A DNA stretch of 63,682 nt, filler included, from Sphacelaria rigidula (lineage: Eukaryota), in assembly GCA_964200075.2 (NCBI GenBank). It is 9 parts of 9 records of this genome, joined end to end, with 100 filler letters (N's around TTAATTAATTAA, not from the genome) between each part and the next. Parts side by side here need not be neighbours in the genome. Positions count along the whole stretch, not along the records: positions 28,353 to 35,338 come from CAXNAA020017071.1; 8 more parts are not named here. One strand, written 5' to 3'. The notes under the pieces are model-generated. The model was not told the origin of the DNA. It saw only the letters and a program-made list of their open reading frames with translations, and made no database searches. The position numbers and the translations under genes are program-made. Positions 5,846 to 63,682 of the stretch are shown here, one piece after another (position 1 is the stretch's first letter; each line of letters opens with the position of its first letter).

Positions 5846-6616
5846 ATGATGATGGAGGGTACATCACTGTATTGCTCTGGGGTACCACGGTACGGCGCTG
5901 TACTCGTAGAATGATTCACTGCCTGCCTGCTCTTCGGCTCCACCAGTACCCGATGCCACACCAATGCAGAAAATGGCCGTCCGTGTACAGAACTACTTCA
6001 CAAATCTGTGAGACTAAAAAAATGTACCCACAGATCTGACTTTCGCAAAAATATGAATCCCCCCGATCTTTCCCACATTGGGGTCTCCACGGAATCGGGA
6101 TTCGTCCCCCTGAAAAACTGGACTTGGGCCACTTCCTATGTGTAGGAAAACAAAAAACTTTTTTTTTGTTGAAAACTGCCTTTTTGGTCCTTTTTCCGTC
6201 GGTGTACGCCCGAAAGGAGGGCTTCGACGCATGATGACACCTGCAATTCACTTGCTCTACTCGTCGAAACCGTTCGAGGGCACCTTTGGGCTTCCCAGTA
6301 ATGGCACTTTTTTTTTTGGTCAAACTTGCATTTCCAATCACAAACGGTAAAGCTGCAGAATAAACTGGCAATTTTGCCCCTGATTTTTCAGGGCTTGACC
6401 GTTTGTGAATGAAAGTGCAAGGTTGGTAACAAGAGAAAAGTGCGGCCACGGGAAAGCACGAAGGTGCCGTGGAACGATCTCATCGAACAGAGCACGTCAT
6501 TCCAAGGTGTCAACAGGCGTCTAGCCCTCTCTTTCCGAGCGTACAACGACGGAGAAGGGCCAAAAAAGGCAGTAGTTGACGACAAGATTTTTTCGACACA
6601 ATGAGAGTGCTTTCAA

Positions 6617-7088: not shown

Positions 7089-7097
7089 AGAAGGTTT

Positions 7098-7281
7098 CAC
7101 ACCTTGGACAATATATGGTCAATAGTTGCAATAGACAAGAAACGTACTGCATAAAGTATAGGCCTATTGCGGTATTTGTCGGCCGGTATTTGTCGGCCGG
7201 CAATAGTTGCAATAGGCCCATACTTTATGCAGTACATTTCTCGTCTAATGAATCTTTTGACCGTATGTTGTCCAGGGTGTG
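7098..7281. mobile_element. MITE with 8-bp TSD (hAT/P-type), inserted in a minus-strand SINE A head
   Basis: TIR CACACCTTGGACAATATATGGTCAA / TTGACCGTATGTTGTCCAGGGTGTG; exact TSD GAAGGTTT at 7090-7097 and 7282-7289. The flank 7282-7320 is the reverse-complement SINE A head. Confidence 0.85.
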
Positions 7282-7351
7282 GAAGGTTTCGAGGTTACCG
7301 ACTGAGCCACCGGGGCGACCGGATTGCTGTACGTGTACGTACAAGGTAGTA

Positions 7352-12689: not shown

Positions 12690-13117
12690 ACAGCGGATTC
12701 TCAAAAATGGGGTTGAACACAAAAATTAGGTTCGACTCAAAAGCAGTGCTTTCCCTGACCTAAAGTAGTGGCAAATGATAAGTCATATGGACGACTTCAT
12801 CCCTCCCGACCTCCCTAAAACTATTTCGGGGGGTTTTTAGCCTTCCGTTCCCCCACAGGGTATGTGTGCGAAATCACACTTCCCCCTCGATTTCGGGGTG
12901 TGAAAAAAGGGGCGCTTTTTTGGCCCAAAAACCGTGCTTTCGCACATACTCTTTGGGGGAACGGAAGGCTAGAAACCCCCCGAAAGAGTGTTGGGGAGGT
13001 CGGGAGGGATGAGGTCGTCCATATGAAAGGCATTTGTCATGACTCTAGGTGAGGGAAAACATTGCTTTTGAGTTGAACCTCATTTTTTCTTCAACCCCAT
13101 TTTTGAGAATCCGCTGT
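12690..13117. mobile_element. foldback MITE (~200-bp arms), probably Tc1/mariner-type
   Basis: ACAGCGGATTCTCAAAAATGGGGTTGAA ... TTCAACCCCATTTTTGAGAATCCGCTGT|TA (left flank TG). A related end lies at 21265-21332. Confidence 0.85.
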
Positions 13118-14176: not shown

Positions 14177-14311
14177 TGGAAGAAACGTAATGAGCGCCAG
14201 AATGTTAGAGGTGTCTCTATTAGGAGTAGAAATGGTGCTCCGTTTCGAAAGGGATGCGTAGTCAGTGATCAAACGACTAAGCCAAGCAAAACATAAGTAC
14301 GCCCCACCCCC
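14177..14311 (+). mobile_element. 3' end of C-tract-terminated non-LTR retroelement
   Basis: ...TCGAAAGGGATGCGTAGTCAGTGATCAAACGACTAAGCCAAGCAAAACATAAGTACG followed by a C-rich tract; homologous to 33048-33354 and 46667-46732. Confidence 0.75.
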
Positions 14312-26864: not shown

Positions 26865-27282
26865 GACAGACAACTCTATCAAATGAGGTTGCATAATGAA
26901 ATGAGGTTCAAGCCCAAATGAACGCTGTCTCCACACTTTCAGCGACGGATCTCAATGGCGTTTTTGTCGGCCTCATGCCCCTCGATCGGGAAGATACTTT
27001 TCCAGCGCATTTTTACCGACTCTGTGAGCTTACAGCGCTGACCGAAACCGCCGTTCCCATGATATCACCCCGCCCCCCTGAACGATCGAGGGATTTGACG
27101 GTTTCGGTCAGCGCTGTGAGCTCACAGAATCGGTAAAATACGCTGGAGAAGTATCTCCGCGATCAAGAGGCATGAGGCCGACAAAACCGTCATCGGGTGC
27201 CATCGCTGAAAGTGTGGGGAAAGCACCGTCTCGGTCTTGAACCTCATTTCATCGTACAACCTCATTTAAAAAAATGTCCGTC
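26865..27282. mobile_element. foldback MITE (~190-bp arms)
   Basis: AAATGAGGTTG...GAAATGAGGTTCAAG...CAGCGCTGACCGAAACCG pairs with CGGTTTCGGTCAGCGCTG...CTTGAACCTCATTTC...CAACCTCATTT; termini resemble 12690-13117. Confidence 0.8.
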
Positions 27283-28252
27283 CTTCACTGCCTCACTTGA
27301 TGGATTCAACTATGAAGAGGTGTCGAACGAGGTGTTGATGAGTTTACGCCACAAATTTTCCAGGTTATGGTGGTAGTGCACTTTGATTTGACGATCACAA
27401 AGCAAGGTTGGTATGGGCGGTTTCGATAGTAGTACCCAGGGTTTATTCTGCCGTATGCATCATCTCCCCCATGTTTTGTACCTCTTGTCGGTAGCCTTTC
27501 AACAGACACGTATTCATATCAAGTGTACATATATATGAGAATCACTCACCTGCTCCCACGCATTCTACACTTCTTGGGGCTTCGAAAGTTCCTAAAGATA
27601 CCTACCGTAGGCAAACCAACAGCATCCATGTCATACAGGGCGGCACGAGGTTGACGAGGTGCCCTGAGCTGGCCTAGAGCCGGATATCTAGTTCGAAACG
27701 ACGTTTAAAGGAGGGTGAGACACCTTGGCTTAGACACCTTGGCTCTGGTTCTACAGAGGAAATGAAACGTTTTTTTTCCAGGTCCTGTTCAGGCTTGAGT
27801 TCCGTATGTGCGTTTTTTTGCTTGAAATTAAGGTCCTCTTTTTTAATTGTCGGCTTTTATTTTTTGAAGCCCCACCTTAAGCTGTTTTGGCGTAAAGTAG
27901 GCGCGCTTTATGCGCCTTATTCCCGCCCTTGTTGTGGTGTTGTTGCAGTATGCTCTCACGAGGCGCCCCTTCTAGCATGAGGACGAGACCACGAGATGGG
28001 AAGTTATGGTGTTTTTGTAATTGATAAATGAGGCTTTTCACCAGTCATCGAGTTTGAAGGCCACAATCTGCGCACCTACACCCTAACCCACGTGCGAAAA
28101 GGACGAATAATAAATGCCACTGCGCCAGGGGGCAGCGAAAAAACAAATTCAGAACACGTAGGCCCCAAGATCGAAAATTCGAGTTTTGAGGGGCGGGAGG
28201 GGGGTAAGGAGGGGGGGGGGGGTATTTATTCGTTGCTTGCCTGAGGCGTTTG

Positions 28253-28352: not shown

Positions 28353-29104
28353 ACCCAGGCACACGCAGCCCAGACACGCGGAATGGCGCAAAAGTTACGT
28401 GGATACCCCTTGGACCAGCGATCAACTTTTCACTCCCTTTTGGGCAATCAGGCCGAAGAAATGGTGAATTTGGTGATTCCTAGTCGTGATGATTCGTCCT
28501 AACCGAACCATGCAAGTGCGTTAGGTTCGATAACATGCCGTCGAGCACTTTGCTCTGTGGGTGCGATTTGAATTCGGAGGGAGGGGCGGGGAGGGATGTA
28601 CTTATGATCATGGGGGGGGGTTGCTTCATTGAAAAGAAAAGAACAAAGCAAAACGACGACAAGAAGAACTGCGTCACGACATTTTTTTCAGTATAATAGT
28701 ACCATGGTGTCTAAATACGCAGACTTGTCGGAACAACGAGTGAGGGAAACATGTGAGTGGGGGTCCAGAGAACAGTCTAGAGCGAGAATATGCCCCGATG
28801 TTTAGCCTGCGATTTTTTACCTGCACGCGTCAGAAGTTTCAAAAATATCATTTTCGACGAAGCAAATAGAACGAGAAGGTCCTTCCCTACCTTAACTTCC
28901 AACCATTGATACTACTCGTCCGGAATTGGCTTTCCGCACTATCATTATACCTCGAGAAGCTATACCGGCCGCATCAGAACAAACCACCGAGGAATAGTGT
29001 GCTAACCGTACGTTTTTCCCGCCCCTGAATGGATCGTCGTAATCTCTCTGTCGGGCTCTCTGTGTTTCCGTGTGTTTCACTGCTGAAATTGGTGACTGTC
29101 TCAG

Positions 29105-29185
29105 CCGGAGAGAAAAGGGAACAGGATGCTCGTGTGTGACACTTGCGATGCGGAGTACCACTGCCGATGCCTTGGTTACGCGGAG
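29105..29185 (+). CDS. PHD-chromo-QLQ-PDZ-like protein, exon a (PHD finger middle)
   Basis: cag|PERKGNRMLVCDTCDAEYHCRCLGYAE|gtatgt: CxxC-x4-H-xx-C of a C4HC3 PHD finger. Confidence 0.88.
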
Positions 29186-29577
29186 GTATGTACTTGATAG
29201 TATATGGTACCCTTCATCTGCATGGAATGGGATCTTTAGGATCTAGATTGATTTCACGCGCTTGGCGGCTGGAGTATAGCCCAATTCCTTCACAGTGTCG
29301 AAACCAAATACCAATACACAGCGTTTCAAGTCAAAATGATCGTGGTGTTGGGTACAGAGTGTAGTGTGTATATCTTTGTGCTATTCCTCTATGCAGAGAT
29401 GAAGAGATGCATCCAAACAATTCCGACGACAAGTGCACCAAACATTGGTTGGTGATGAGGATATTCATTTTGAGTGTTTCCCAAACATTAGTCTGATTGA
29501 TATTTGCGTATTATTTTGAATATCTGCTGTTGTATTCAGTTTTCATCGTGACGACTCTTACAGTTCCCTCCAAGTAT

Positions 29578-29878
29578 GCCGCCGCACCTCGTTTTGTAAC
29601 TGGTACGCGAATAGACAGTTGGGGCGGGAAGATGCCGGTTCGAGACCCGACATATACGGTTCTTCCCTGACCGCCCGCCCGCCCCCTTTGTTTATTCTCC
29701 GACGTTTTAGGACGTGAAGTTGTGAGCAGGAAAAATATCATGGGAGTTGACCCTGTGTGAGAATGCTGGTCTAGTCGGTGACACGAAAATGTTGGACATG
29801 CACAGGGGAGAAGTATGGGCTGGTCTCTGGGAGTTACGGTATGGACTCGTTCCGAATAGGGGGAAGGGTTCGAAGTAA
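29578..29878 (+). mobile_element. diverged tRNA-headed SINE with shared core, intronic
   Basis: GCCGCACCTCG head, B box GGTTCGAGACCC, core-like GAGTTGACCCTGTGTGAGAATGCTG and 3' block GGACTCGTTCCGAATAGGGGGAAGGGTT. Confidence 0.5.
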
Positions 29879-30519
29879 GACGAAATATATACATACTTGC
29901 GCACATACACAGATGTAAATTATTTTTCTCGTGTATGTCATGGTCAATGGCTCCGGTTTCCTCCTCGGAAATGATGGGAATTCGATGATGATTCTAGTGG
30001 AGCACGATGTTTACTGCCTCATTTTTTTGTGCTCCGTTTACGATATGCACAGGCTAAACACCACAGCAATTCGGAGATTGGTTTCAGACGGCAAGCGAAT
30101 AATGGTACGAGTATGTCAGTCACTCTTTCCTTGAAACCAATGCCTTATACCGCGCGCAACGTGCCTCCAAGCACAATCCCGGGTGGTATGATGTTTTCTT
30201 CACTCGTCGCACTTTGAACCCCTCCCCTTTCTCGGTACGAGTCCGTGGTCTCAAGGAATCAAGCCATCCCTCCTCGGTTCAAGGAAATAGCAAGTGATAC
30301 TCGTGCCACTATTCGGTGGCCGTCTGAAACTAAAGTAACCTGGGAGCGACTTAACCTATTTCTGAGCACTCTGAGTCGCATCGTGTGTGCATGATGACAC
30401 TTTTCGAGACAGTACATCGTGAAAACCCCGTCCCGGTTGCTAGTACGTCGCCTCTGCGTTGTTTTGCTTACATAGAGTGGTCTGTGGTTGTCGTCGTCGT
30501 CGTCGTCGTCGTGTCGCAG

Positions 30520-30642
30520 GTGCCGAAAGACAAACAGTGGCTGTGTCCGGTGTGCACAGTCATGCTTCACAAGGGCCAGACGCTTTTCTCGCACCAGACC
30601 GAGGTTGAGAAGGCCAAGAGGTCGCAATACCCCCCACCGACG
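30520..30642 (+). CDS. PHD-chromo-QLQ-PDZ-like protein, exon b (PHD end)
   Basis: cag|VPKDKQWLCPVCTVMLHKGQTLFSHQTEVEKAKRSQYPPPT|gtgcgt: VP...WxCPxC completes the PHD. Confidence 0.88.
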
Positions 30643-30958
30643 GTGCGTTTGTATGCTTTTCAGCAGACCTCTTTGCCTCTGTGCGCCTAAATTTCTGACG
30701 TCCGTACTAAAAATGATAGAAAAGCATGGAATTATCCCGCTAGTATTTGCCACTCCTCCACACCGTGTGTGTGCATGTGTGCGTGTGTTTTCTCACCGAA
30801 CGCCGTTAATCTCTGGCTGTCGTGGTCCGTGTGGATCGCACTTGTGTTCCGTTCTGCTCACCCGTGCGTTGTATCACTGTATGTCATGTTTCTGCTGAGG
30901 GTGCAATGCGAGGTGACGTGTTCCGTTTTGTCTTCTTTTTTTTTCCATCTCCACCCAG

Positions 30959-31042
30959 GTGGAAGTCATGGAGGTGCAGAAATACTTGGTCAAGTGGAGC
31001 GGCTTGTCCTACCAGTTTTGTACTTGGGAAGACCGAGAAGAG
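30959..31042 (+). CDS. PHD-chromo-QLQ-PDZ-like protein, exon c (chromodomain)
   Basis: cag|VEVMEVQKYLVKWSGLSYQFCTWEDREE|gtgaat: YLVKWxGLxYxxCTWE chromodomain signature. Confidence 0.9.
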
Positions 31043-31960
31043 GTGAATTGGAGAATGACCAGTGGCTAGCCCTATTCCGTTATACACTTCGGCAATGATC
31101 GAAATATGCAGCAACATGAAATCTCAGAGGTTGGAAATCTTGAAAGTGATGCATCACAGGTTAGCAGTAAAGATATTCTCCTCTTCAGTTCATCCTCATT
31201 CAAATATCTTCTCCGAAAAGGGCTCGCTCCGAATGTTGTGGAGTTAATGGTATGCTTATGGAAATATATGAAGGGCACGCAGTGAGCTGCGAGTAGCCGG
31301 CCACGATAAAACTGACTCGAAAAGAAGGCGCTCTCTCATGAGTTTAGTTGAAGCAAGTCGGATTGAGACTTGAAATTTGATGGATTTTTCGAGAATCAGT
31401 TCAACTGGGTATTCGCGTCATCGATCTTGGGTAAGTGTGTTATTTGAGGTGACGGAACGTCGAAAGAGAGTAGACACGTGTTTTGTTCTCATGTTACCGT
31501 TGTCATCGTCATCGTCCATATTTATCGCTAGTCCCGGCAAGACGGTTCATTTGTTTGCCAACACCCCGCAGCACATTTAGTGAAAGCATTGCCCCTGACG
31601 ATCTCGCGTGGTTTGTCGATGTTGCCTCATCGTGTGTTGGTGGATATGCTGAGGTGTCATGCTCAATTTGAAACAAGAATAACTGAAAACGCATACCATG
31701 AGAGCTGAAAAATTATGGAAAGAAAAATGTTTGTGCTCCACAAAGAAATTTGAATGTTCAAGTTTGCCATAGATTAATTTTCCTTGTGCTGCACGAATTG
31801 TTTTGCGCACATCGTAATTTGATTCTGCTCTGCTGCTCAGCGTATTTGTTCGCTCCCTGCCTTGCCTTGCCTTGCCTTGCCCTTCTTTCTGATCCTTGAA
31901 CACCTTCCGACGTGATGTCGTGTTCCGTGCATTGTGCTTTTTGCTTGGTGCTTCGGGCAG

Positions 31961-32035
31961 CTCAACAATGACGACAAGATAGAGCAGTTCAAACGCCTCA
32001 ACGATTCTCCGCCCGTCAGTCCTCCCATGTCCGAG
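31961..32035 (+). CDS. PHD-chromo-QLQ-PDZ-like protein, exon d (chromodomain helix)
   Basis: cag|LNNDDKIEQFKRLNDSPPVSPPMSE|gtatat; phase 0. Confidence 0.82.
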
Positions 32036-32530
32036 GTATATTTCAGTACACCAACTTGAGCACCGTGTTGATGTGTTCGCGGAATAGTGCCGACGAAAAT
32101 GACCCCAAACACATACAGCCTTTGCGCTTGGAATAATCCGCACTTTTTTTTTTCCTAATCGCAATCAGCAATCGCAAAAACTGTGGACAACTCGATTAGT
32201 TTCAGGATTTGTGTCTCAAGTTTGGTTGTGGTCGACGTGGCGTCACCTTGTCACCTTGTCGCCTTGCGCGCACCAAAAGTTTTGCCAAAGTGTACCGTTA
32301 TTCCTTTGAGACGGTAGGATTAGGCATTCCGAGGTGCCATGATACGCATTATCGTCATGAAATATGGCACTGAGTATAAGGCATGAATTTGGCCATAATA
32401 TAAGCACCTTCCTGGAGACACCAACTGTGTGGTTTTCATATTTGGAGAGTTATCGTACTGTTCGATTTTTCAAGCTTTGTTTATACGCGTGAACGTCATC
32501 ACTTTTATTTTTTTGCGATTCCATCTCCAG

Positions 32531-32632
32531 GAAGAGCTGTCCCGCACGCTCTCTCAGACCAACCACGATGTGCTACCGGCGCTTATGGAGCCAAGTGCCG
32601 TGCTGGAGTACAGCGCGCAGATCTACAGTCAG
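32531..32632 (+). CDS. PHD-chromo-QLQ-PDZ-like protein, exon e
   Basis: cag|EELSRTLSQTNHDVLPALMEPSAVLEYSAQIYSQ|gtacgt; phase 0. Confidence 0.82.
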
Positions 32633-33047
32633 GTACGTGCCTTCGCTGTTCCGATCATCTTGTTGCGCGATTCTCTCAGGGGGTCGAGCACAAACCAAGA
32701 GTAATTTTGTCGTATTCCATAACTCAGCGCAGCTTTCACGTCAGCATTCAACTCCAAATAGTCACACGGGAAACATCTTCGAATGGGTATCAAATCAACG
32801 TATGCAGCTTCGCCTCCATGTAACGAGATATATCTTTTCCCCATCGTTAACACACGGTCGCCAGTTGCGTACTTGTTTTTAGCAAGGATTACGCACACAA
32901 ACCAAAGCAGGACCGTCAGTCTATTTGTATGCTTCATTGTCCGGTCGTTCTTGGACGTTGAATGCTTGATCATTAAGATACCGTAAGCATGTTTGATTTG
33001 ACTCAACAAGGTCGCCAGAATCTGCAACCCCCCCCCCCGATATGTAA

Positions 33048-33354
33048 GCCAAACAAGGAGGAATGGGACGTGGTAGAGAGGGAAGTGCGGGACGTGAACG
33101 AAGGTGGCATGAAACCGTTTGATGCATTAGACAGTCATGAGAAAACGATGGCTATACTAGGAGATCGATGGTGGCCACAGACGGGCGAAACAGGACGGAT
33201 ATAAGATATGTGATTTTTTGTGTAATGTTCGGAAGAAACGTGGTGAACTCCTGAATGTTGGAAGTGTCTAAATTAGGAGTAGGAACGGTGCCCCGTCTCG
33301 AAAGGGATGCGTGGTTAATGGTCAAACGACTAAGGCAAGCAACGAATGAATACG
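33048..33354 (+). mobile_element. 5'-truncated C-tract-terminated non-LTR retroelement with 16-bp TSD
   Basis: TSD CCCCCCCGAT(A/G)TGTAA at 33032-33047 and 33355-33370; residual ORF ...KEEWDVVERE...EKTMAILGDRWWPQT; ends GGCAAGCAACGAATGAATACG. Confidence 0.8.
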
Positions 33355-33391
33355 CCCCCCCGATGTGTAACGACGTTTGATTGTGCGGCAG

Positions 33392-33487
33392 ATTCGAGCC
33401 TTTCATTTCTTGAGGCATGGGATGGCTCCCCCGACGGGGTTAATGAAGGAGTGCGGGAAGGCGGCGGCGACGTTCGCGTATCAACAG
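33392..33487 (+). CDS. PHD-chromo-QLQ-PDZ-like protein, exon f (QLQ-like)
   Basis: cag|IRAFHFLRHGMAPPTGLMKECGKAAATFAYQQ|gtaaca; with exon e gives SQIRAFHFLRHGMAPPTGL, resembling the QLQ consensus QIxAYKxLxxGxPxPxxL. Confidence 0.82.
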
Positions 33488-33758
33488 GTAACAGCAACAT
33501 ACTCCATTATAGCAATCTAATGCTGTCGTTCTTCATGTTATTATAGCAAAATATTTTCTTGCAAGGTTCAGACAAATAACGACTCGTCTGAAACTTATTG
33601 TCGTTATATACCTACTCGTAGTTATACCTGCCTAGATGAGATGTGCAACGCACATGTAGACAGCACGTCTTTTCTGTTCCGATTTCCGTTTTTTTGTCGC
33701 CCTTTTTTCTTCATCTCTCGTCACATTCGACTGCTCTGCGCGTCTCCATTCATGTCAG

Positions 33759-33923
33759 GAGGCGAAGGCTGCTTTGCCGGAAGGTGCTGCCCCCGACAGC
33801 TATCGTAGAGAGATTGATGCGCTCTTGTTCGATATGAAGAACGCTGTGAGCCACGGGAAGAAGTACGAACCCCCTTCCCGGTCGGACCTGCCAGCGCTCG
33901 AGCTGCACAATGCGGAGTATGAG
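33759..33923 (+). CDS. PHD-chromo-QLQ-PDZ-like protein, exon g (GC donor)
   Basis: cag|EAKAALPEGAAPDSYRREIDALLFDMKNAVSHGKKYEPPSRSDLPALELHNAEYE|gcaagt. Confidence 0.75.
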
Positions 33924-34752
33924 GCAAGTGGAGCATGACATGATGAATAGTTTCGTGAGTAGCTGTTGTGTGCGTGGATAACTTGTGTCGTTCCATACCT
34001 ATTTGGTTTGGCTTTTTGGTTGCGTGGCTGCTTGAACCTCGTCTGGGAGATCGTGAGATGTTCGGTGTTTGCGTTGAGTGCGAGTGTGTCATGTTGACCA
34101 ATTTTTTTCTTCCACAGTGTTTTTATTTTCATTTTCATCATAATGTATCTGTTTTGTTTTCGGAGGAAGGAGAAGAGGAAGGGCTTTCTGCTGAAGATGC
34201 ACGCTATCATAGGGTCGTACGGAGCTTGTTCCTTGTTTGGTTGCTCGCAAGTGGCAAACATGGCGCTTCGTACAAAAGCGTGCAATTATGGACCAATGGT
34301 GGTATGTACCTTGTGTCGGTTCGCATGCGAACCGAAACATGCAACATGACATTTGTCTGATAAAGGGGGTGCTTGCGTGGCATAGTTTTTTCGGGGTATT
34401 CTGTCGGATGGATCCATCTCAACATGAGCCCAAGGCGTAGGATGGACGCGGTTGACTTCAATGCGGTCGCTCGCCGTGCCGGTTATGCCATTTTAGTGGT
34501 GCAAATGGGCGATGTTCTCGCCACGCGATGTCGTGCCGAATGTTGGGAATGCTTCAAGGAGCTGCCGTCGTGGAGCGAATGGTGGTAGCATTGCGGTTTG
34601 CAAAAGTGTACGGTGGTCTGCTTGCATGGCGGGGGTTTTGCTCGGTTGCTATGCAACCCCGTTTTTTTTTTTTTGTTGTTGGCAGTTTGATTGCACAGTC
34701 GCACATCTTGTCTTGTTCCGTATGTGCGTGTGCTTGTATCATTATTACCCAG

Positions 34753-34850
34753 GTGACACTGCCGAAGGAAAACGGCAGTCTGTTCATGAACATTCACCAG
34801 CAGATATGCGACGGGCTCACGTGTGTCTTCATCTCCTCGCTCACGCAGAG
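34753..34850 (+). CDS. PHD-chromo-QLQ-PDZ-like protein, exon h (PDZ-like start)
   Basis: cag|VTLPKENGSLFMNIHQQICDGLTCVFISSLTQ(R)|gttagc; YEVTLPKxxGSLxMxI...VFISSL follows the PDZ betaA-betaB-betaC pattern. Confidence 0.75.
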
Positions 34851-42224: not shown

Positions 42225-42293
42225 CTCCATCACGTCCGGGTTTCCGGCCTTGCCGATACCCGATATCAGCCCGTCCTTCATGCCGATGTCTGC
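42225..42293 (-). CDS. URE: urease, exon 1 of 4 seen
   Basis: cag|[23 protein letters not shown]|gtatgc; ADIGxKDG...GIGKAGNPD motif, joins in frame to 39773. Confidence 0.94.
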
Positions 42294-42424
42294 CTGCAAA
42301 ACACGTGCAAATCACGGATGGGGGTAAAGCATCGCGCAGAGCGCCAAACGGTGGGAGGAATGAAGGGTGTACTCATGATCGTGCATGCCATAGTCATCAA
42401 ACCATTGACCTCGCATCCCTACAA

Positions 42425-46144: not shown

Positions 46145-46666
46145 GTACGTGCCCGTCTTTTTGCGTAGACACACAGCGAAATGTCTCAGACCTTACAGGA
46201 AGTCCGCGATACACTCGGCCAACATTTTGTTTGAGTAACAAGATGAACTCCGATAACTGGTGCTTTAGCCGATCTGGCCCATCAGCGTGCGTGGCTGTCC
46301 GGTCACCCCTTGGATTTTTGTCGCGAGCAGGTCGATTAATCGCAGCCACGCGTTTTGTTTGTATCAATCATTTGTTGTGTACGTTACAGCTCTCTCGCTC
46401 AATGCCTCCAGTGCCATCAAACACGGTATTCACGTTTTTATATATTGTTCAGGATTTGTGTGAAATTGACGATCGGTGGGTGCGCGTCATCCGAAAGAAT
46501 CATAGCGAGCTTCGGCGTCTTGATGATCTGTGATCAATGATAGTGACATGCAACGTATGGACGCGCTACTGACGCGGTATTTCTGCCTGAGGTATTGCTT
46601 AAGCGCTTCACATATGTCGTGGAATGTAGCTGAGCTCCCCCCCCCCCTCAACCTCTCCTCTCCGAC

Positions 46667-46732
46667 CTCTCCGTCTCGAAAGGGATGCGTGGTCAATGGT
46701 CAAACGACTAAGGCAAGCAACACATGAGTACG
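46667..46732 (+). mobile_element. extremely 5'-truncated (~66 bp) C-tract-terminated retroelement with TSD
   Basis: TSD CCCCCCCTCAACCTCT at 46641-46656 and 46733-46748, extending to TCCGAC with a 4-nt indel; body CTCCGTCTCGAAAGGGATGCGTGGTCAATGGTCAAACGACTAAGGCAAGCAACACATGAGTACG. Confidence 0.85.
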
Positions 46733-46797
46733 CCCCCCCTCAACCTCTTCCGACGCCGCCGCTGCATGCCTCCTTATTATATTTATGGACTGTTCAG

Positions 46798-46869
46798 GTG
46801 GATGAGCTTGGCAACACAAACCGCCCCAGCCAGCCACTCAACAACCGCACCATCAAGTATGTTTCGTAA
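46798..46869 (+). CDS. alpha-carbonic anhydrase, terminal exon
   Basis: cag|VDELGNTNRPSQPLNNRTIKYVS*; NxRPxQPLNxR motif and TAA stop; AATAAA near 46994. Confidence 0.94.
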   Translation: MDELGNTNRPSQPLNNRTIKYVS

Positions 46870-49610: not shown

Positions 49611-52130
49611 TGCTGGAATGCGCATGTTGGCGCAAATGCCCTTGCTTATTCCTGCTTTGTAGTATCTCGCCCACTGCAATTCGAGAGGTGACGGGTACTT
49701 GCTGTTGTAACGCGAAGTTGCTTTGCACAGCAACGCAGAGTAGCTTGTTATCAACGTACACAGGCAGTGGTGACTGCACATTTTTTCCGATTGTTGTTGG
49801 TGTACAGAGGCGATGCACAAATATCCCACCTGTCCAGTCTCATAGTTTCCTCCTCTTATCTTGTTATTAATGCACACAGGCAGTAGTGACAGCAAACGTT
49901 ATGGCTGTCTTCGGTCTATAAAAGGCAGTGCATCGAACATCGAAAATGCCGCGCTTGAGGCCCTGGCTTGTGCGTTCGATAGCGTAGACACGACACAGCC
50001 GATTTTGATCAGAGCAAACTATATGGTTCGTGGTACTCTAAATTGGGAGAATGAATTGCCTCTTGTATACGAGCACATACAAGAAATCAGCACCCCATGG
50101 CAGGACGGAAGATACATACACACACCCTTCAAAACGAAGCTTGTCCCATGTTGCATTGTTCACATATTGTTCTTAGTATTCATAGTCAGTTACCAAAACA
50201 TCTTTGCTGTCTCCCGACTGTGAAAAAACCAAGGACCGCAATAAAAATTGGGCGCACCGGCTTAGCTTATCCGCTGGTCCCAGCACTCTGACATGAAACA
50301 GACGCGTCAAACTTTTCGGTGACCGCGTTGAGCGTTTCGGTGGCCGCCTTGTGTTCTTTCTCAGCCTTCTCCGCGCGTTGAGGCGCCGCCTTAACCTTGC
50401 GCTCGGCCGCCAGGGCACAGGTCAAGTCTTGACCGGTTCTTTCCTTGTACTCCGCCCATGCTTCGCGGGATTTCGATTTTCTCTTGAACTTCGAAACACC
50501 GTGCTTCTGAGAATTTCCCATTTTTCACCTCCGCAAAAGCTGCTGGTCCTCAACCCACAACAGCCGACTTTTCAACTCTATTTTCTCGGCAACCAGGTAG
50601 AGGATTCCACGGCGGTTTGGTGCGTGCGCTTCCCATACACCGGAACTGTCCAGTGTGGCCACAGCTTTCCGTACGCGTGCCCAGCACTTCAGAAACCGCT
50701 GCACCAAATACAAGATGTTCTGAAAAACGCGTTTTCCGCAACGTTCTGGGACTTTTTGGACCCCCTGTGGCGAATGGAGCAAATCTTCTTCCGCTGCTGT
50801 ATAGGTCTAGCGTGTGTGCTGGGGGCTGTGAAGTTCCAGAGGCCGCTATGCTTCCTGTCTCGAGATAATTGCGATGAAAAAAATTACATCTGTCGCATAC
50901 TAAACCTGGGTAACTTGGGATGGAGCGTGTGTCATCTTCGGCAGAGGTTCGGCAGAGGTTCGGCACAGGTCCGACCAGTCTACGTCTTAAATACGTCTTA
51001 AATACGTCTTCAATATCCGTCCGCATTCAATTTTGTTTTTATGGGCCCCGGAGTTTTGGTCGGTAAGGCCTTCATTCACCCCGATAACAGTATCTCGGTT
51101 TTCAATGTTCTGTGTACAGTACAGACGCGGAGCATCGCAACGAAAGCTCGAATTCAATCGCAGATCCCCGATATTGCAGCGGTCCAGCGCAGGACCATCG
51201 CTTTGGAATCTCGAATATATGCTGTCAACCTCGCTTTTGTTGAGGTTGGTTCATTCACCACACGCAATTTTTGCAGAGATTTTGGTATCCGCTAAAACCT
51301 TCCACCGCAGATGTCGATCATTTGTTAAATCGGCGCCGCTTTCACTCAAAGATGACTGCGATTTGTTGGATCGGATCCGCCTTGAGTATGTTCCAATGGA
51401 CCAAAAGCCAACAGTTGTATTGCATTTGTGTTCCCTCTCTCTTGATTTTCGTTTCCTTTGTTTCTTTTCTTCTTTTCCCCCCCTCTCTCTCAGGATGGTT
51501 GTGTTCGGTCTCTCCACTGCTTTTCGTCTTTGTCTGTTCTCGAGTTTTCCTTCAGTAAGTGCTGTTTCCATGTACTTGCCCTGGATACATTCATCGTTTG
51601 ACCGCGACTGAATTATTATTCGCAGCAGGGTACATGTGCGGCAGGATTTGAATAAATCGATGAGTGCCATACTGCTCTGTGCCCGTGTATACCGTAATGC
51701 ATCGCTAAAGAAACTCCGGAGTATGATTATTGGTAACCTCTTGTTGGTTGGAAGATGACTTTTCTATGGGTTGAGGGTGCAGAGAATCTGATGTTTTATA
51801 TTCTTGCCATTTTTTGCCAACTTAAACTCAGGATATCTCGTCCCCAGACAACTTTCGGTAAGATAACTGGAATACATGGACGCATTTTTGTTTTTCATGC
51901 TTCGATATTTGCGGCTGACTTTCTCTTTTAAAGGGGGTCATTTTCCATGAAGCGCGGCTGGAACCTCCGGGCAACTGCGGACAACTAGTAAGGACCTTGC
52001 AGCACCGTTACCCATATTCTGCAGGATGAACGTCTCGTGAGGCGCAGAGGAGAAAAATGTACAGAAGTGAAAGAGAAGTGGAGTGTGTGTTTGAACGACC
52101 TAAAATGCACGAATGATGCTGACATATAAA

Positions 52131-52404
52131 ACTCTAATCGTGAGATTCAGAGTGCAGTTTCAGATTCAGAGTCAGGATTTCAAACGGAAGAACTGTTTTC
52201 TTTGTGGTCGATTATTATGCGAAACAGTTCGCGTCACTGATCCGCCAACATTGGAGGCTACGAAAACACGCACGTTCATTACTCGGATTGGTTGATTGGT
52301 GACGCGAACTGTTTTGCATAAGAATCGACCACGAACAAACAGTTCTTCCGTTTGAAATTCTGACTCTGAATCTGAAACTACACTCTGAATCTCACGAATA
52401 GAGT
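52131..52404. mobile_element. foldback MITE with ~112-bp arms
   Basis: ACTCTAATCGTGAGATTCAGAGTG...AAACAGTTCGCGTCAC pairs with GTGACGCGAACTGTTT...CACTCTGAATCTCACGAATAGAGT. Confidence 0.85.
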
Positions 52405-52576
52405 CTTCTATGGAGTATGAAATGTGAAATAAAATGAAGGCATAATAGAATGGACATGGAGAACTATATTTCCTCATGAACACACTTCGCTTTTTTTCGA
52501 TTCTGCCTGCTCTTTGCCTTTCGATGAACGCAATCAACGGGAACGATTGGACCATACGGCCGGACGAACACAACAG

Positions 52577-60300: not shown

Positions 60301-62556
60301 CTCTAGGGAGTCATGCCGGGTGTTTCATGACCAAAATTGACATCGGCCACATCTCTAGAGCTCATGAACCCGGGTTCTGAAAAATAAGAGATGGAGGAAG
60401 ACAAACGAAGAAGCCACGAAGGGAAGCCGAATGGGTGCGCTCAATTCGCCGCCCACAAGGCGGTACGGGTGGATATTCTTTCTCGCTCATCAGTCTACTC
60501 TTTTTGTATTCTGCTTTTTGTTCTTAGCTTCCTCTATTTCTTCCTCTTGTGTCATCTTTGGTCTTTGTATTGGAGTGTTGGCGAAAACAACATGCATTCG
60601 TCTATTTAACATCTATCGTGATAGCCACTTGCCACCTTCTGGTCGCTGACCCCAATGCTTCAAAGCCAGCTGGCACCTGAAATCATGAAAACTATTATTT
60701 TCACCATCAAGCCTCGGAAATCACTAGGATTTTGGCCGGAGCTTGATAATATGACATTAGAGAAGGCAGGCTGGACTTCGAATTAGATATAGACATAATA
60801 CGTCTATCGGGAAGATAAAATCCGAAAGGCCTAGACCGCTAAACCTTACATGTAATGTTCGTTGTCTACAGCTATGCGAACTGCCCCGGCTCGCACCTTC
60901 ATTTACTCCGCATTGATATGCCTGTGCAGCTGTAATGCGCGTGCTACGCGACACGCTGCTGCTATTGGTGCGTACATGCATGTCAAGTACTGATATCTGC
61001 CGCAGTTGCGTGAATAGTCTGTACTGTTGCTCAGCGATGCTGGCTGCTTTGCACTATTGCTGTACCCTGCTGTGAACGGCATTGTTGTCTGTCGTCCATA
61101 CTGCCTCCACCTCTACTACTCTATGTGCTGTCTGTACCGCCAGCTGCACAGTGGTACTTGATTTCAGGTATTTTCGATAAATTTAAGCCCCTACTCCCAC
61201 GAACTTTGATTCCTCTTGACAGCATGTTTCTTTTCTCAACAAGATGGGCAGGAAGGGCACGTCTCTGAAAATTTTCGTTTGGCTTCACGTATATCTCGCA
61301 TCTGCGCAGCCTTTCGCAATGAATTCGTCGAGGGAAACATTATTTGTTGCGACATGCTCGTGCGTCTGGACTACAAGAAATGGCAGAAGCGTATTTCAGA
61401 CACCGCATTATTCTGTGATTGATCGGGAAGTCTGTGTTTTGTATCGTGTGTCACACTGTTGCATGTCATGTTCGCATACGAGTAGACATGACGTGGTCTG
61501 ACGCAAGTGCACGGCCGACTTTTAATCGAAAAGTTTTTATTACGTGGATCGTTTTCCATCTGTGCCATGGGAATCATGTTCCTTGGAGACTAATTGTCTG
61601 ACACAGATGCCCACCGTTCGCCACTCCAAACGGTGACTACACACAGCACCGACGTCGAACTTGAAACCACTGATGGCAATCTCTCTTTTTCGGAATACGA
61701 GGCTTCACTCGCTATTTCGTTAATAACCACCTTTTTCCAGGCCATGGAATGCTCCCTCCTCTTTCGATCATGCGCTCTCCTCATCGTTTCGCCAACAGGC
61801 ATACTGTACACCGACCTCTTCTACCCCACGCTAGCCACCCCCTCCGGCGTAAAGCATTCTACATGTTTTCAAACGCTGGGATCTCGTGACTTTTAGATTT
61901 TTTTCGTTATATCACGGGTCTGCCGGGGGAAAATGTTTGGACACGTGGCCCGCCCCCGCCGCTCCCCGCCGCCCCCTACCTCCCAGAGGGCAATTGTTCA
62001 AAACTGTCATGATTTTTTAATCATTGTTTTGGTTAAATATTGTTCAAGAAATGGATCAAGAAACACTGACGAAAACCAAGAAGTCTGTTGGGCTTTGCGA
62101 GGTTCGTATCTTTGCTTCTGCTCCCTGCCCGCTCTGTCCCGATGACCTTGGATGCCAGCCATGCTCACACTCATGTATGCACACGAGCGCACGGTAGCGA
62201 CAGCCTGTAGCAAAAGTAGCAACATCATCTCACGCATCGCCAAACTTGCGCGGACAACTGGTAGGTTCTCGAGGCACATTATACGGAACATGTACCATAA
62301 ACTGCCACTTGACAACAGAAAATCCCGGACCGACAACCACAATAGAGCTAGACATACAAAAACGTGAATGACCAATTTTGCTTTCCCCCATGAACACACA
62401 GGCTGGATATAGACATGATGTAACAGAGCTGGGATTTTTTCATCTCCTTCCTTTTCCTCACTCTGTGTTTTTCCCTTCCATTTCGTCTTTTTCTCCTCCC
62501 CTTTCCTCTTTATCTACATCGTTCCCTCTCTATTTTCTGTTTGTTTGTTTCTTTCG

Positions 62557-63165
62557 CTACCATAACACAGCCCGGACAAAAACATGAAGTAGAAAAGCGA
62601 ACCATCCCTTTTCTATAACGTACCATGACAAAGCCCGGACATGGTCATGAAATGAAGAAGCTAACCATCTGTTTTCTTCAACCTACCATAACACAGTCCG
62701 GGCGTAGACATGAAACAGAGAATAAAACTATGCTTTTTCTTTAAGCTACCATAACACAGCCCGGACATAGACATGGAATAACGAAGGTATCCATCCGTTT
62801 TCTTCAACCTACCATAACACAGCCCGGACATAGACATGAAATAGAGAAGCTAACCCTCGTTTTTCTTTTACCTGCCAAAACACAGCCCGGACAAACTCAT
62901 GGAATGAAGAAACTAAATCTGCTAATTATTTAACCTACCATAACACAGCCCGGACATAGACATGAAATAGAGAAGCTAACCCTCTTTTTTCAACCTACCA
63001 TAACACAGCCTGAACATAGACATGAAATAGAGAAGCTAACTCTGTTTTCCCTTTACCTTCCAGGACACAACCCGGATATAGACATGAAATCAAGAAGCTA
63101 ATCCTGTTTTTTCTTCAATCTATCACAATACAGCCCGAATACAGACATAAAATAGAAAGAAAAAC
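62557..63165 (+). repeat. minisatellite, ~10 units of 60-63 bp
   Basis: Consensus CTACCATAACACAGCCCGGACATAGACATGAAATAGAGAAGCTAACC(C/A)TC(T/C)GTTTTCTT(C/T)AAC; a degenerate unit lies near 62386. Confidence 0.93.
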
Positions 63166-63682
63166 ATATGAACTTTCCCATGCCAAGACGGGAAATAACC
63201 GAGATTCTTACCCCATATCGCACCAAAGGTAAGACAAGAACTAAGCCAGACCCTGAACATGTAAGTAATATTGTGAAGGTTGACCACCTTACATGCAACT
63301 CAAGAATACAACAGATAAAGCCAGTACGGAGAGGGTAGGTTTATCACCCCCTCTATGTTAAATGCACGTGGAAGTTGGGGTCTCGTGGTGAGATACCTGT
63401 GAAACCGCACCGGTTTTCAGCAGGCGGTGGAAGTCTGGTGAGCCATTTCCCTATATTTTCTGCCATTAGGTGCAAAAGGCGCCTAGTGAAGGGAAGGCGC
63501 GGACAATACATGACGTAAACGTCAAGACCCACTGCACTCATGAAACAAACGCTTTACCAATGACCGATCACATGACCTACGAGAAGAAGCACCAAGCGGT
63601 ACGTAGACTTCTTGAGATCTTGAAGGATAGAAGCTGGTACAAAGTGTGAGGGAACCGTTGGCCAAGCTTTCGGCAGCGAAGG

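Follow-up and report, generated by a model that had tools for sequence, protein, structure and literature searches.

Copies of a probable RTE-X-type LINE with a C-tract 3' end in the brown alga Sphacelaria rigidula often begin at a fixed point 66 nt from that end

The closest described systems are the RTE-X LINEs of Ectocarpus sp. 7. In the parts of the repeat catalogue of that genome covered here (Dinatale et al. 2025, PMC12477816), RTEX-1_Ec32 is annotated as 'single EN-RT ORF; (C)n 3'' and RTEX-2_Ec32 as '(C)n termini/TSD', and the target site duplications (TSDs) of all RTEX families are given as C-rich. The same pages describe RTEX-N1_Ec32, an element of 604–607 bp that occurs in tandem, is 83% identical to the LINEs over the 60 bp of its 3' end and weakly resembles a LINE 5' end; it is possibly the 'Sower' repeat, to judge from the 2.5 Mb given in the available part of PMC3145265 and the 2.48 Mb given for N1. 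RTEX-1 is also recorded from Saccharina in the portion of PMC4421812 covered. In green algae the terminal repeats of RTEX elements are (CA)n or (CAA)n, according to the sections seen of Ohshima (2013, PMC3747384), which also describe LINE/SINE pairs of the stringent type as having a structured 3' tail in common, with predicted stem-loops. Insertion at (C)n repeats is reported in the covered part of Craig et al. (2021, PMC8557442) for Chlamys Penelope-like elements (PLEs).

The window analysed here is a stretch of 63,682 nt from the S. rigidula assembly GCA_964200075.2, in which N linkers separate nine contigs of ca. 7 kb each. A preliminary description of the window had noted three ends of the form ATRARTACG followed directly by C, on three different contigs, and these are present on the plus strand at 14293, 33346 and 46724. 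A fourth match to ATRARTACG (27517, minus strand) is unrelated; TGTC comes next, not C. The focal copy, at 33048–33354 (+), is a 5'-truncated LINE copy of 307 nt that holds the last ca. 100 codons of an endonuclease-reverse transcriptase (EN-RT) ORF. It is flanked by a 16-nt TSD that begins with C7: the 5' copy (33032–33047, +) lies inside a C11 run at 33028–33038, and the 3' copy (33355–33370, +), the original target, matches it at 15 of 16 positions. The ORF remnant is broken by stops and a frameshift, and its TGA stop codon (33347–33349) is followed by 5 nt before the C tract. Alignment to a full-length homolog, P0002, gives 55% over 49 aa (E 6e-16), and the translation terminates like that of P0002. 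Among the matches listed in the genome, 40 scored copies are related to the focal copy at 85–87%. Its last 67 nt (33288–33354, +) are a domain also present in a non-coding partner family, B; this domain is predicted to form a three-way junction that a basal helix of 6 bp closes, and its 5' edge is the breakpoint of the 66-nt class of copies described below. The focal copy itself carries mutations in the basal helix, and no three-way junction is predicted for it (z +0.87).

The insert and one TSD account for 323 nt of the 759-nt host intron (32633–33391, +, GT..AG). This intron is spliced out in contigs of three RNA-like runs (X1, X2, X4) and is unspliced in the DNA-like run X5, the type of each run being an automatic guess from its behaviour, with four small-share runs classed as RNA-like. 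The focal copy is therefore intronic, in sense orientation, 37 nt before the next exon of a multi-exon gene, which the RNA-like contigs place at 33392–33487 (+, 96 nt). The host gene (29104–34850, +) has eight RNA-supported exons, transcript contigs of ca. 10.8 kb, and one intron with a GC donor (33924–34752); its translation contains what we take to be PHD-, chromo- and QLQ-like motifs.

The second copy (46641–46748, +) consists of a TSD (46641–46656), filler (46657–46668), the element (46669–46732) and the second TSD copy (46733–46748), with the two C7-led TSD copies identical at 16 of 16 positions. The element is tail-only, at 64 nt, and is a member of the 66-nt class. The insert lengths of 307 and about 66 nt in the preliminary description hold, the second being 64 nt plus 12 nt of filler. 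Both copies had been described as sense to the host gene, 37 and 65 nt before an exon; splicing in the RNA-like contigs supports this for the first, while the exon after the second (46798–46856, +) is predicted only, with an exon model score of 18.8. The third copy (14178–14301, +) is cut by the contig start and is followed by a C-rich tract, with no predicted exon within 150 nt. Two further ends had gone unnoticed: the 3' end of a fourth copy (28223–28252, −), cut by the contig end and followed by C12, and a family B 3' end (42368–42424, −), 74 nt before a predicted sense exon (42225–42293, −) that has an exon model score of 24.2 and a translation that probably resembles a urease alpha subunit. 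Elsewhere in the window, a tandem array at 62548–63170 with 63-nt offsets, the same period as a repeat in the LINE 5' leader, is probably the leader of another LINE copy, and imperfect palindromes of 190–430 nt (6175–6573, 7095–7284, 12690–13117, 26881–27267, 52123–52412) are probably MITE-like elements.

Genome-wide, in the 244-Mb assembly of 27,214 contigs, the 18-nt end pattern of the LINE (family A) has 4,370 exact matches, and the reversed control has none. The earlier view that this is a non-LTR retroelement with the hallmarks of target-primed reverse transcription (TPRT) is supported. Copies have variable 5' truncation, TSDs of variable length and no LTR; a profile search of copy L211 finds an RT domain (RVT_1, E 4e-28) in an open frame of 337 aa; and the best homologs are single-ORF APE-RT proteins of 1,328–1,360 aa at 71–73%, along with proteins of Ectocarpus sp. 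CCAP 1310/34; these Ectocarpus homologs and the intron-rich genes are in keeping with a brown-algal genome. Residues 1–1326 of P0002 are collinear with 4.0 kb of one genomic copy (L255) at 55–69%. P0002 carries an N-terminal APE endonuclease (PF14529/PF03372) in the same ORF, and the genome's own short EN fragments had no Pfam match. The C-terminus of the homologs matches the translation of the element's last codons. The LINE has a single EN-RT ORF whose stop codon lies 5 nt before the C tract. Upstream of the ORF is a leader of ca. 2.1 kb with 8–12 copies of a 63-nt repeat and a 5' head common with family B. Pieced together from separate copies, the full element would be ca. 6.2 kb. Among 30 long copies, coverage falls steadily upstream, into RT sequence. 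No intact ORF was found in the 150 scored of 1,991 RT candidates, the longest open frame being 355 aa; young full-length copies may be collapsed or hidden in the fragmented assembly. In one locus, L254 (G000:C961:12000-17933), the C-terminal part is inverted relative to the 5' part, or two copies stand head-on.

The element resembles RTEX-1_Ec32 and RTEX-2_Ec32, as far as these are described in the parts of the catalogue covered, in its single EN-RT ORF, (C)n 3' end, C-rich TSD, length (5.5–5.9 kb there, an inferred 6.2 kb or so here) and thousands of mostly truncated copies, many of them intronic. It differs in belonging to another genome and in having older, decayed copies, with younger relatives present in Ectocarpus, and the C end of the Ectocarpus elements is given only as a table comment. 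The RTE-X assignment is made by matching descriptions, not sequence, and we consider it probable, as part of an explanation in which a brown-algal RTE-X-type LINE with a ca. 600-bp non-coding partner primes on C/G runs and has its position set by C tracts. An Ectocarpus sp. CCAP 1310/34 homolog, P0006, is 61% identical in the RT region and has the C-terminus in common. Membership in the RTE clade was rejected: RTE-1_Ec32 and RTE-2_Ec32, in the same partly covered catalogue, end in (CAA)n and measure 4.0–4.6 kb, and the ends here are C-rich (2 of 198 A-rich) on a longer element. A Chlamys PLE identity was also rejected. On the description available in part, GIY-YIG and a PLE-type RT would be expected, and the close homologs carry APE domains and a LINE RT. 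The preliminary description had not known of any report of this insertion specificity. It is already catalogued in Ectocarpus, where RTEX-1, RTEX-2 and RTEX-N1 are given as '(C)n 3'' with C-rich TSDs in the pages covered, an outcome that the preliminary description had itself named as counting against its proposal.

The lack of poly-A and the C tract at the end extend well beyond the window. At least six of the next ten nucleotides are C at 175 of the 198 distinct 3' ends sampled, at least five are A at 2, and the base directly following the end is C in 95%. End patterns served to retrieve 90 of the loci in the sample, and CC was a required part of the pattern for 30 of these; with a C-free end pattern, CCCC follows 73 of the first 100 matches (hand count). 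Insertion at C/G runs is supported by C-led TSDs and by the 120 truncated copies with both flanks, 91 of which have CCCC just upstream of the 5' junction, compared to 11% of random 36-mers. A TSD score of at least 6 was reached by 25 of the 120, compared to 2.7% of shuffled pairs. Two of these 25 matches are spurious, leaving 23 clear TSDs, and a statistically clear TSD is found in only about a fifth of copies. Eight of the 23 have extra C-rich 3' letters missing from the target (two of them doubtful by eye), the target run is longer in seven, and eight are unclear. A same-strand neighbour lies within 400 nt at 48 of 200 ends, compared to 6 with an opposite-strand neighbour – a clustering that is expected if each insertion duplicates a target. 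At the 5' junctions of L043 and L045/L172, filler with TTAGGG units, which we take to resemble the telomere repeat, lies between the TSD and the element, and is possibly a telomerase-like addition at the break.

Human L1 offers an analogy for how such copies could arise; in its TPRT model, priming is on A/T. Here, in a way that fits the junctions just described, the endonuclease would nick the G-rich strand of a C/G run, and the freed 3'-OH of the G run would anneal to the C-rich 3' end of the RNA. The RT would then copy the RNA while anchored to its folded terminal domain of 67 nt, and a second nick some 10–24 nt away would give a TSD beginning with C. Each insertion would duplicate a C tract and so could seed the next. 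The two systems are alike in single-protein APE-RT TPRT, in a homopolymer tail paired with a homopolymer-rich target, and in TSD length; they differ in the bases used, A/T in L1 and C/G here, and the homology to the solved ORF2p is distant (E 7e-21 over the RT).

The end type of family B has 3,162 matches genome-wide. The family is non-coding and ca. 600 bp long, with C-led TSDs and tandem occurrence. It has in common with the LINE a 3' end of ca. 52–67 nt, at 79–85%, and a stretch of ca. 45 nt in the 5' head, at 78–84%. By description, B matches the RTEX-N1_Ec32 type in size, lack of coding capacity, common 3' end, 5' similarity and tandem copies, with two features absent from the Ectocarpus notes covered: the break described next and a repeat at the start of some copies. 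B copies break at 95–99 nt from the end (9 of 58), not at their own helix base (1 of 58, at 72 nt). At least two copies, L176 and L182, start with a repeat of ca. 55 nt of their own −98 to −45 segment, at the place where those 9 of 58 copies break. Family A and B resemble the stringent-type pairs, as described in the sections of PMC3747384 covered, in being autonomous and non-autonomous partners with a common 3' end and predicted stem-loops. They differ in that the tail lies inside the ORF (with a 3' UTR of 5 nt), in that the end is C, not (A)n or a short unit, and in that the tail alone forms an abundant class of fixed length.

The last 67 nt are predicted to fold as a three-way junction with the basal helix starting at −67, with a pair probability of 1.0 for the A consensus and 0.98 for B. 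Stability relative to controls gave z values of −2.4, for a near-consensus real A copy, and −1.9. Between A and B, 39 of 40 paired and 17 of 27 unpaired positions are identical (p 3e-4, an optimistic value, as the structure was partly drawn from both). Changes thus avoid the predicted stems, with no compensatory pair change. One real B copy folds differently, and the A fold switches to an alternative once upstream sequence or the C tail is included. A single base, G in A and A in B, separates the helix from the C tract. A metagenome scan gave one weak, uninformative match. A similar short motif closes the C-terminus of distant homologs (P0006, P0012, P0014, P0037, P0041; 43–61% in the RT region), which suggests an ancient origin for the structured tail within the ORF and a range wider than this genome. 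The 5' head of the LINE and B resembles an H-type pseudoknot by eye (L249:~210-260, also L248, L253 and L182), and changes between the two in these stems, again by eye, preserve pairing, with no Rfam match.

The 5' ends of family A copies have a sharp peak at the base of this predicted helix. Among 83 copies sampled irrespective of their length, the 5' end lies at exactly 66 nt, counted from the 3' end, in 17 and at 62–68 nt in 33. The stop hazard at 66 nt is 0.30, compared to 0.003–0.01 per nt elsewhere. Genome-wide, the 23-mer starting at −66 is preceded by non-G in 1,027 cases and by the LINE's own GG in 1,083, and upstream LINE sequence is missing in 10 of 11 local non-G-preceded matches. 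The flanks of short copies are unrelated unless they are nested in other copies. The fixed 66-nt break is thus a robust genomic pattern, located at the base of the terminal helix and inside the ORF. The variable 5' truncation of the preliminary description is real, and it hides this discrete class, to which the second copy of that description belongs. A second, weaker cluster of 5' breaks lies at 37–42 nt, near the base of an inner hairpin (family A copies L042, L013, L190, L056, L137, L083, L166 and L051). The 66-nt class looks undescribed: the literature searched, with most subscription journals and Repbase Reports outside its coverage, has no report of a fixed-length tail-only class or of acceptor targeting. 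The parts of PMC12477816 covered contain no acceptor test, 3' RNA structure or 66-nt class, and those of two preprints (bioRxiv 2024.02.19.579948, 2025.12.07.692804) have nothing on poly-C ends or a tail-only class.

Several known RNA types were searched for at these ends. If B or the 66-nt class were a true SINE, a Pol III head of tRNA, 7SL or 5S origin would be expected, and an Rfam search of four loci (two 66-nt copies and a full-length B copy among them) retrieved none of these at E values as high as 1. With the same cut-off, neither the 3' domain nor the 5' head matched a ribozyme or any of these three RNAs; microRNA and CRISPR-repeat families gave weak scores, well short of threshold. 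At the break, an HDV-like fold was compared by eye with the consensus and did not fit. A terminal-repeat promoter model was also set aside, since the LINE 5' end lacks a repeat of the −66 sequence.

Of the explanations for the 66-nt class, we favour, at a little under an even chance, an RNA template with a defined 5' end. Cutting or trimming would shorten LINE RNA as far as the base of its terminal helix, with protein bound to it, and the remainder would be copied in full. Next in probability, and clearly behind it, is release of the RT on full-length RNA: positions −66 to −61 pair with ca. −79 to −74, and the RT would let go at the loop of this hairpin. The upstream hairpin is the minimum free energy fold of the longer RNA, B breaks elsewhere and has a different upstream sequence, and short and long copies have one consensus with no diagnostic position, all of which speak for it. 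However, reverse transcriptases usually stop before a stem, not after it. The short copies also have fewer mismatches over 44 nt than the long ones (2.4 vs. 3.9; n = 28 and 20, with the same ascertainment; p 0.04), unexpected if both came from the same templates at the same time.

That difference in divergence would be accounted for by an independent mini-retroposon, in which 66-nt RNAs are excised from host transcripts and re-inserted, outliving the burst of the LINE; this is an unlikely reading, less so than some below and more so than those above. The single-nucleotide 5' end, the unrelated flanks outside nested cases, the transcription of host introns with copies, and the lack of an intact LINE ORF in the candidates scored all agree with it. 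The long copies that match best, which were selected for similarity, are however as little diverged as the short ones, at 2.4–2.5 mismatches. The single consensus means that no mutation is diagnostic of a subfamily, Rfam gave no match to a promoter RNA or ribozyme, and young full-length copies may be concealed by the assembly. A broader form of the idea, speculative and slightly more probable, is that the last 66–67 nt are an autonomous RNA module: a nuclease, or self-cleavage, would free it precisely at the helix base from LINE transcripts or host introns, and it would recruit the RT, prime on G runs through its C tail, and spread by itself. If true, this would be a headless, promoterless retroposon of 66 nt with more than 1,000 copies, and a ready-made minimal TPRT substrate at C/G homopolymers.

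The preliminary description had offered another account of where copies are found, in which sense insertions are funnelled to the 3' ends of introns, just upstream of splice acceptors, as a safe niche. Acceptors were predicted with an exon finder trained on kinase exons with inferred and hand-curated boundaries (curation removed 12 acceptors and 6 donors and shifted 4 acceptors, and 14 long or multi-exon matches were kept out of splice training). In cross-validation on 41 exons, before a masking fix, a score of 12 gave a sensitivity of 1.0 and a false rate of 0.16 per 85-nt window, and a score of 18 gave 0.93 and 0.02; the focal exon (33392) scores 13.5. In element-centred loci, 21, 12 and 6 of 149 copies had a predicted sense acceptor within 100 nt at scores of 12, 15 and 18, compared to 28, 20 and 12 of 175 empty tracts of C6 or more in the same loci (Fisher p 0.64, 0.35, 0.33). 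In kinase loci, the counts were 7, 5 and 4 of 32 copies and 31, 21 and 16 of 180 empty tracts (p 0.5–0.6). Pooled, 17 of 181 copies and 42 of 355 empty C tracts are near an acceptor, so that funnelling is not supported; empty tracts have an equal or higher rate, and the share of copies close to an acceptor is a seventh or so at most. Sense acceptors are about twofold denser in the first 100 nt after copies than in the 100–1,000 nt bins (21/149 vs. 98/1,263), an excess with p values of 0.012, 0.034 and 0.14 at the three thresholds, but empty C tracts show it too. In the window, a sense exon follows three of the five ends at a distance of 37–74 nt, a much higher share than in the genome sample, and these three cases look like a small-sample excess.

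Most of the strand comparisons are balanced, and a sense lean appears in one subset. The first downstream exon is sense or antisense in ratios of 67:62, 46:49 and 28:28 at 160 element-centred ends, and the AT skew of flanks is +0.004 (SE 0.008; 89 negative and 88 positive, n = 178), compared to −0.083 in introns. At 70 kinase loci this exon is sense in 24 of 29, 23 of 28 and 20 of 26 cases (24:5, 23:5, 20:6; p 0.001–0.009). The 24:5 figure is inflated, because 6 of 15 copies antisense to the kinase also had a 'sense' first exon; orientation relative to the kinase strand itself is 21:15 overall and 12:10 within 1.5 kb (p 0.83). Pooled counts are slightly sense, at 69:54 downstream and 42:35 upstream, and calls concordant on both sides are 28:30, 20:13 and 15:9. 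The sense bias of the preliminary description is absent from element-centred loci and AT skew and survives as a lean in kinase loci. By these predictions a strong acceptor niche is excluded, and a mild sense lean inside genes may exist.

The TSD had also been thought to regenerate the pyrimidine tract of the acceptor. The C7 is 30–37 nt upstream of the AG at 33391 and is not the acceptor's tract, the 30 nt before that AG contain only 13 pyrimidines, and regeneration of a tract holds for any insertion with a TSD. In Ectocarpus, the covered part of PMC12477816 counts 11,904 intronic RTE-X copies, 4.2% of intron sequence, and a modest contribution to intron length is thus documented; this speaks for the niche, although 4.2% falls between the values for distal (3.2%) and proximal (6.1%) intergenic sequence. 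The niche, already largely refuted for a strong effect, is very improbable, and the better explanation, which we hold with good confidence, is that position within genes follows the locations of C tracts, not splice acceptors. Least probable of all is addition of the C tail by a CCA-adding-type enzyme on a tRNA-like end (a 6-bp stem and one unpaired base): only a single base does separate the helix from the C tract, and it differs between A (G) and B (A), and extra C-rich letters occur at 8 of 23 TSDs, but A at +3 is found in only 3%, with no excess, the extra letters are mixed, with G, T and A among the C, and look more like donor-flank read-through or slippage, and the fold is no cloverleaf and has no Rfam match.

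What is added here is the sharp, fixed 5' break 66 nt from the end; the C end is not. Being catalogued, the C end is of little weight, as is the unsupported acceptor targeting, and it is the 66-nt break that is worth following. C/G-primed TPRT is seemingly in print for the RTEX family only as a table note, in the parts of the literature covered, and the priming model can be tested through the extra C-rich letters found at some junctions. Truncation in LINEs is as a rule scattered, whereas here a single nucleotide, bordering a predicted fold within the ORF, is the start of a large share of copies. The break defines a candidate minimal RT-recognition element, and it points to a step of RNA processing or of RT release in the life of this family.
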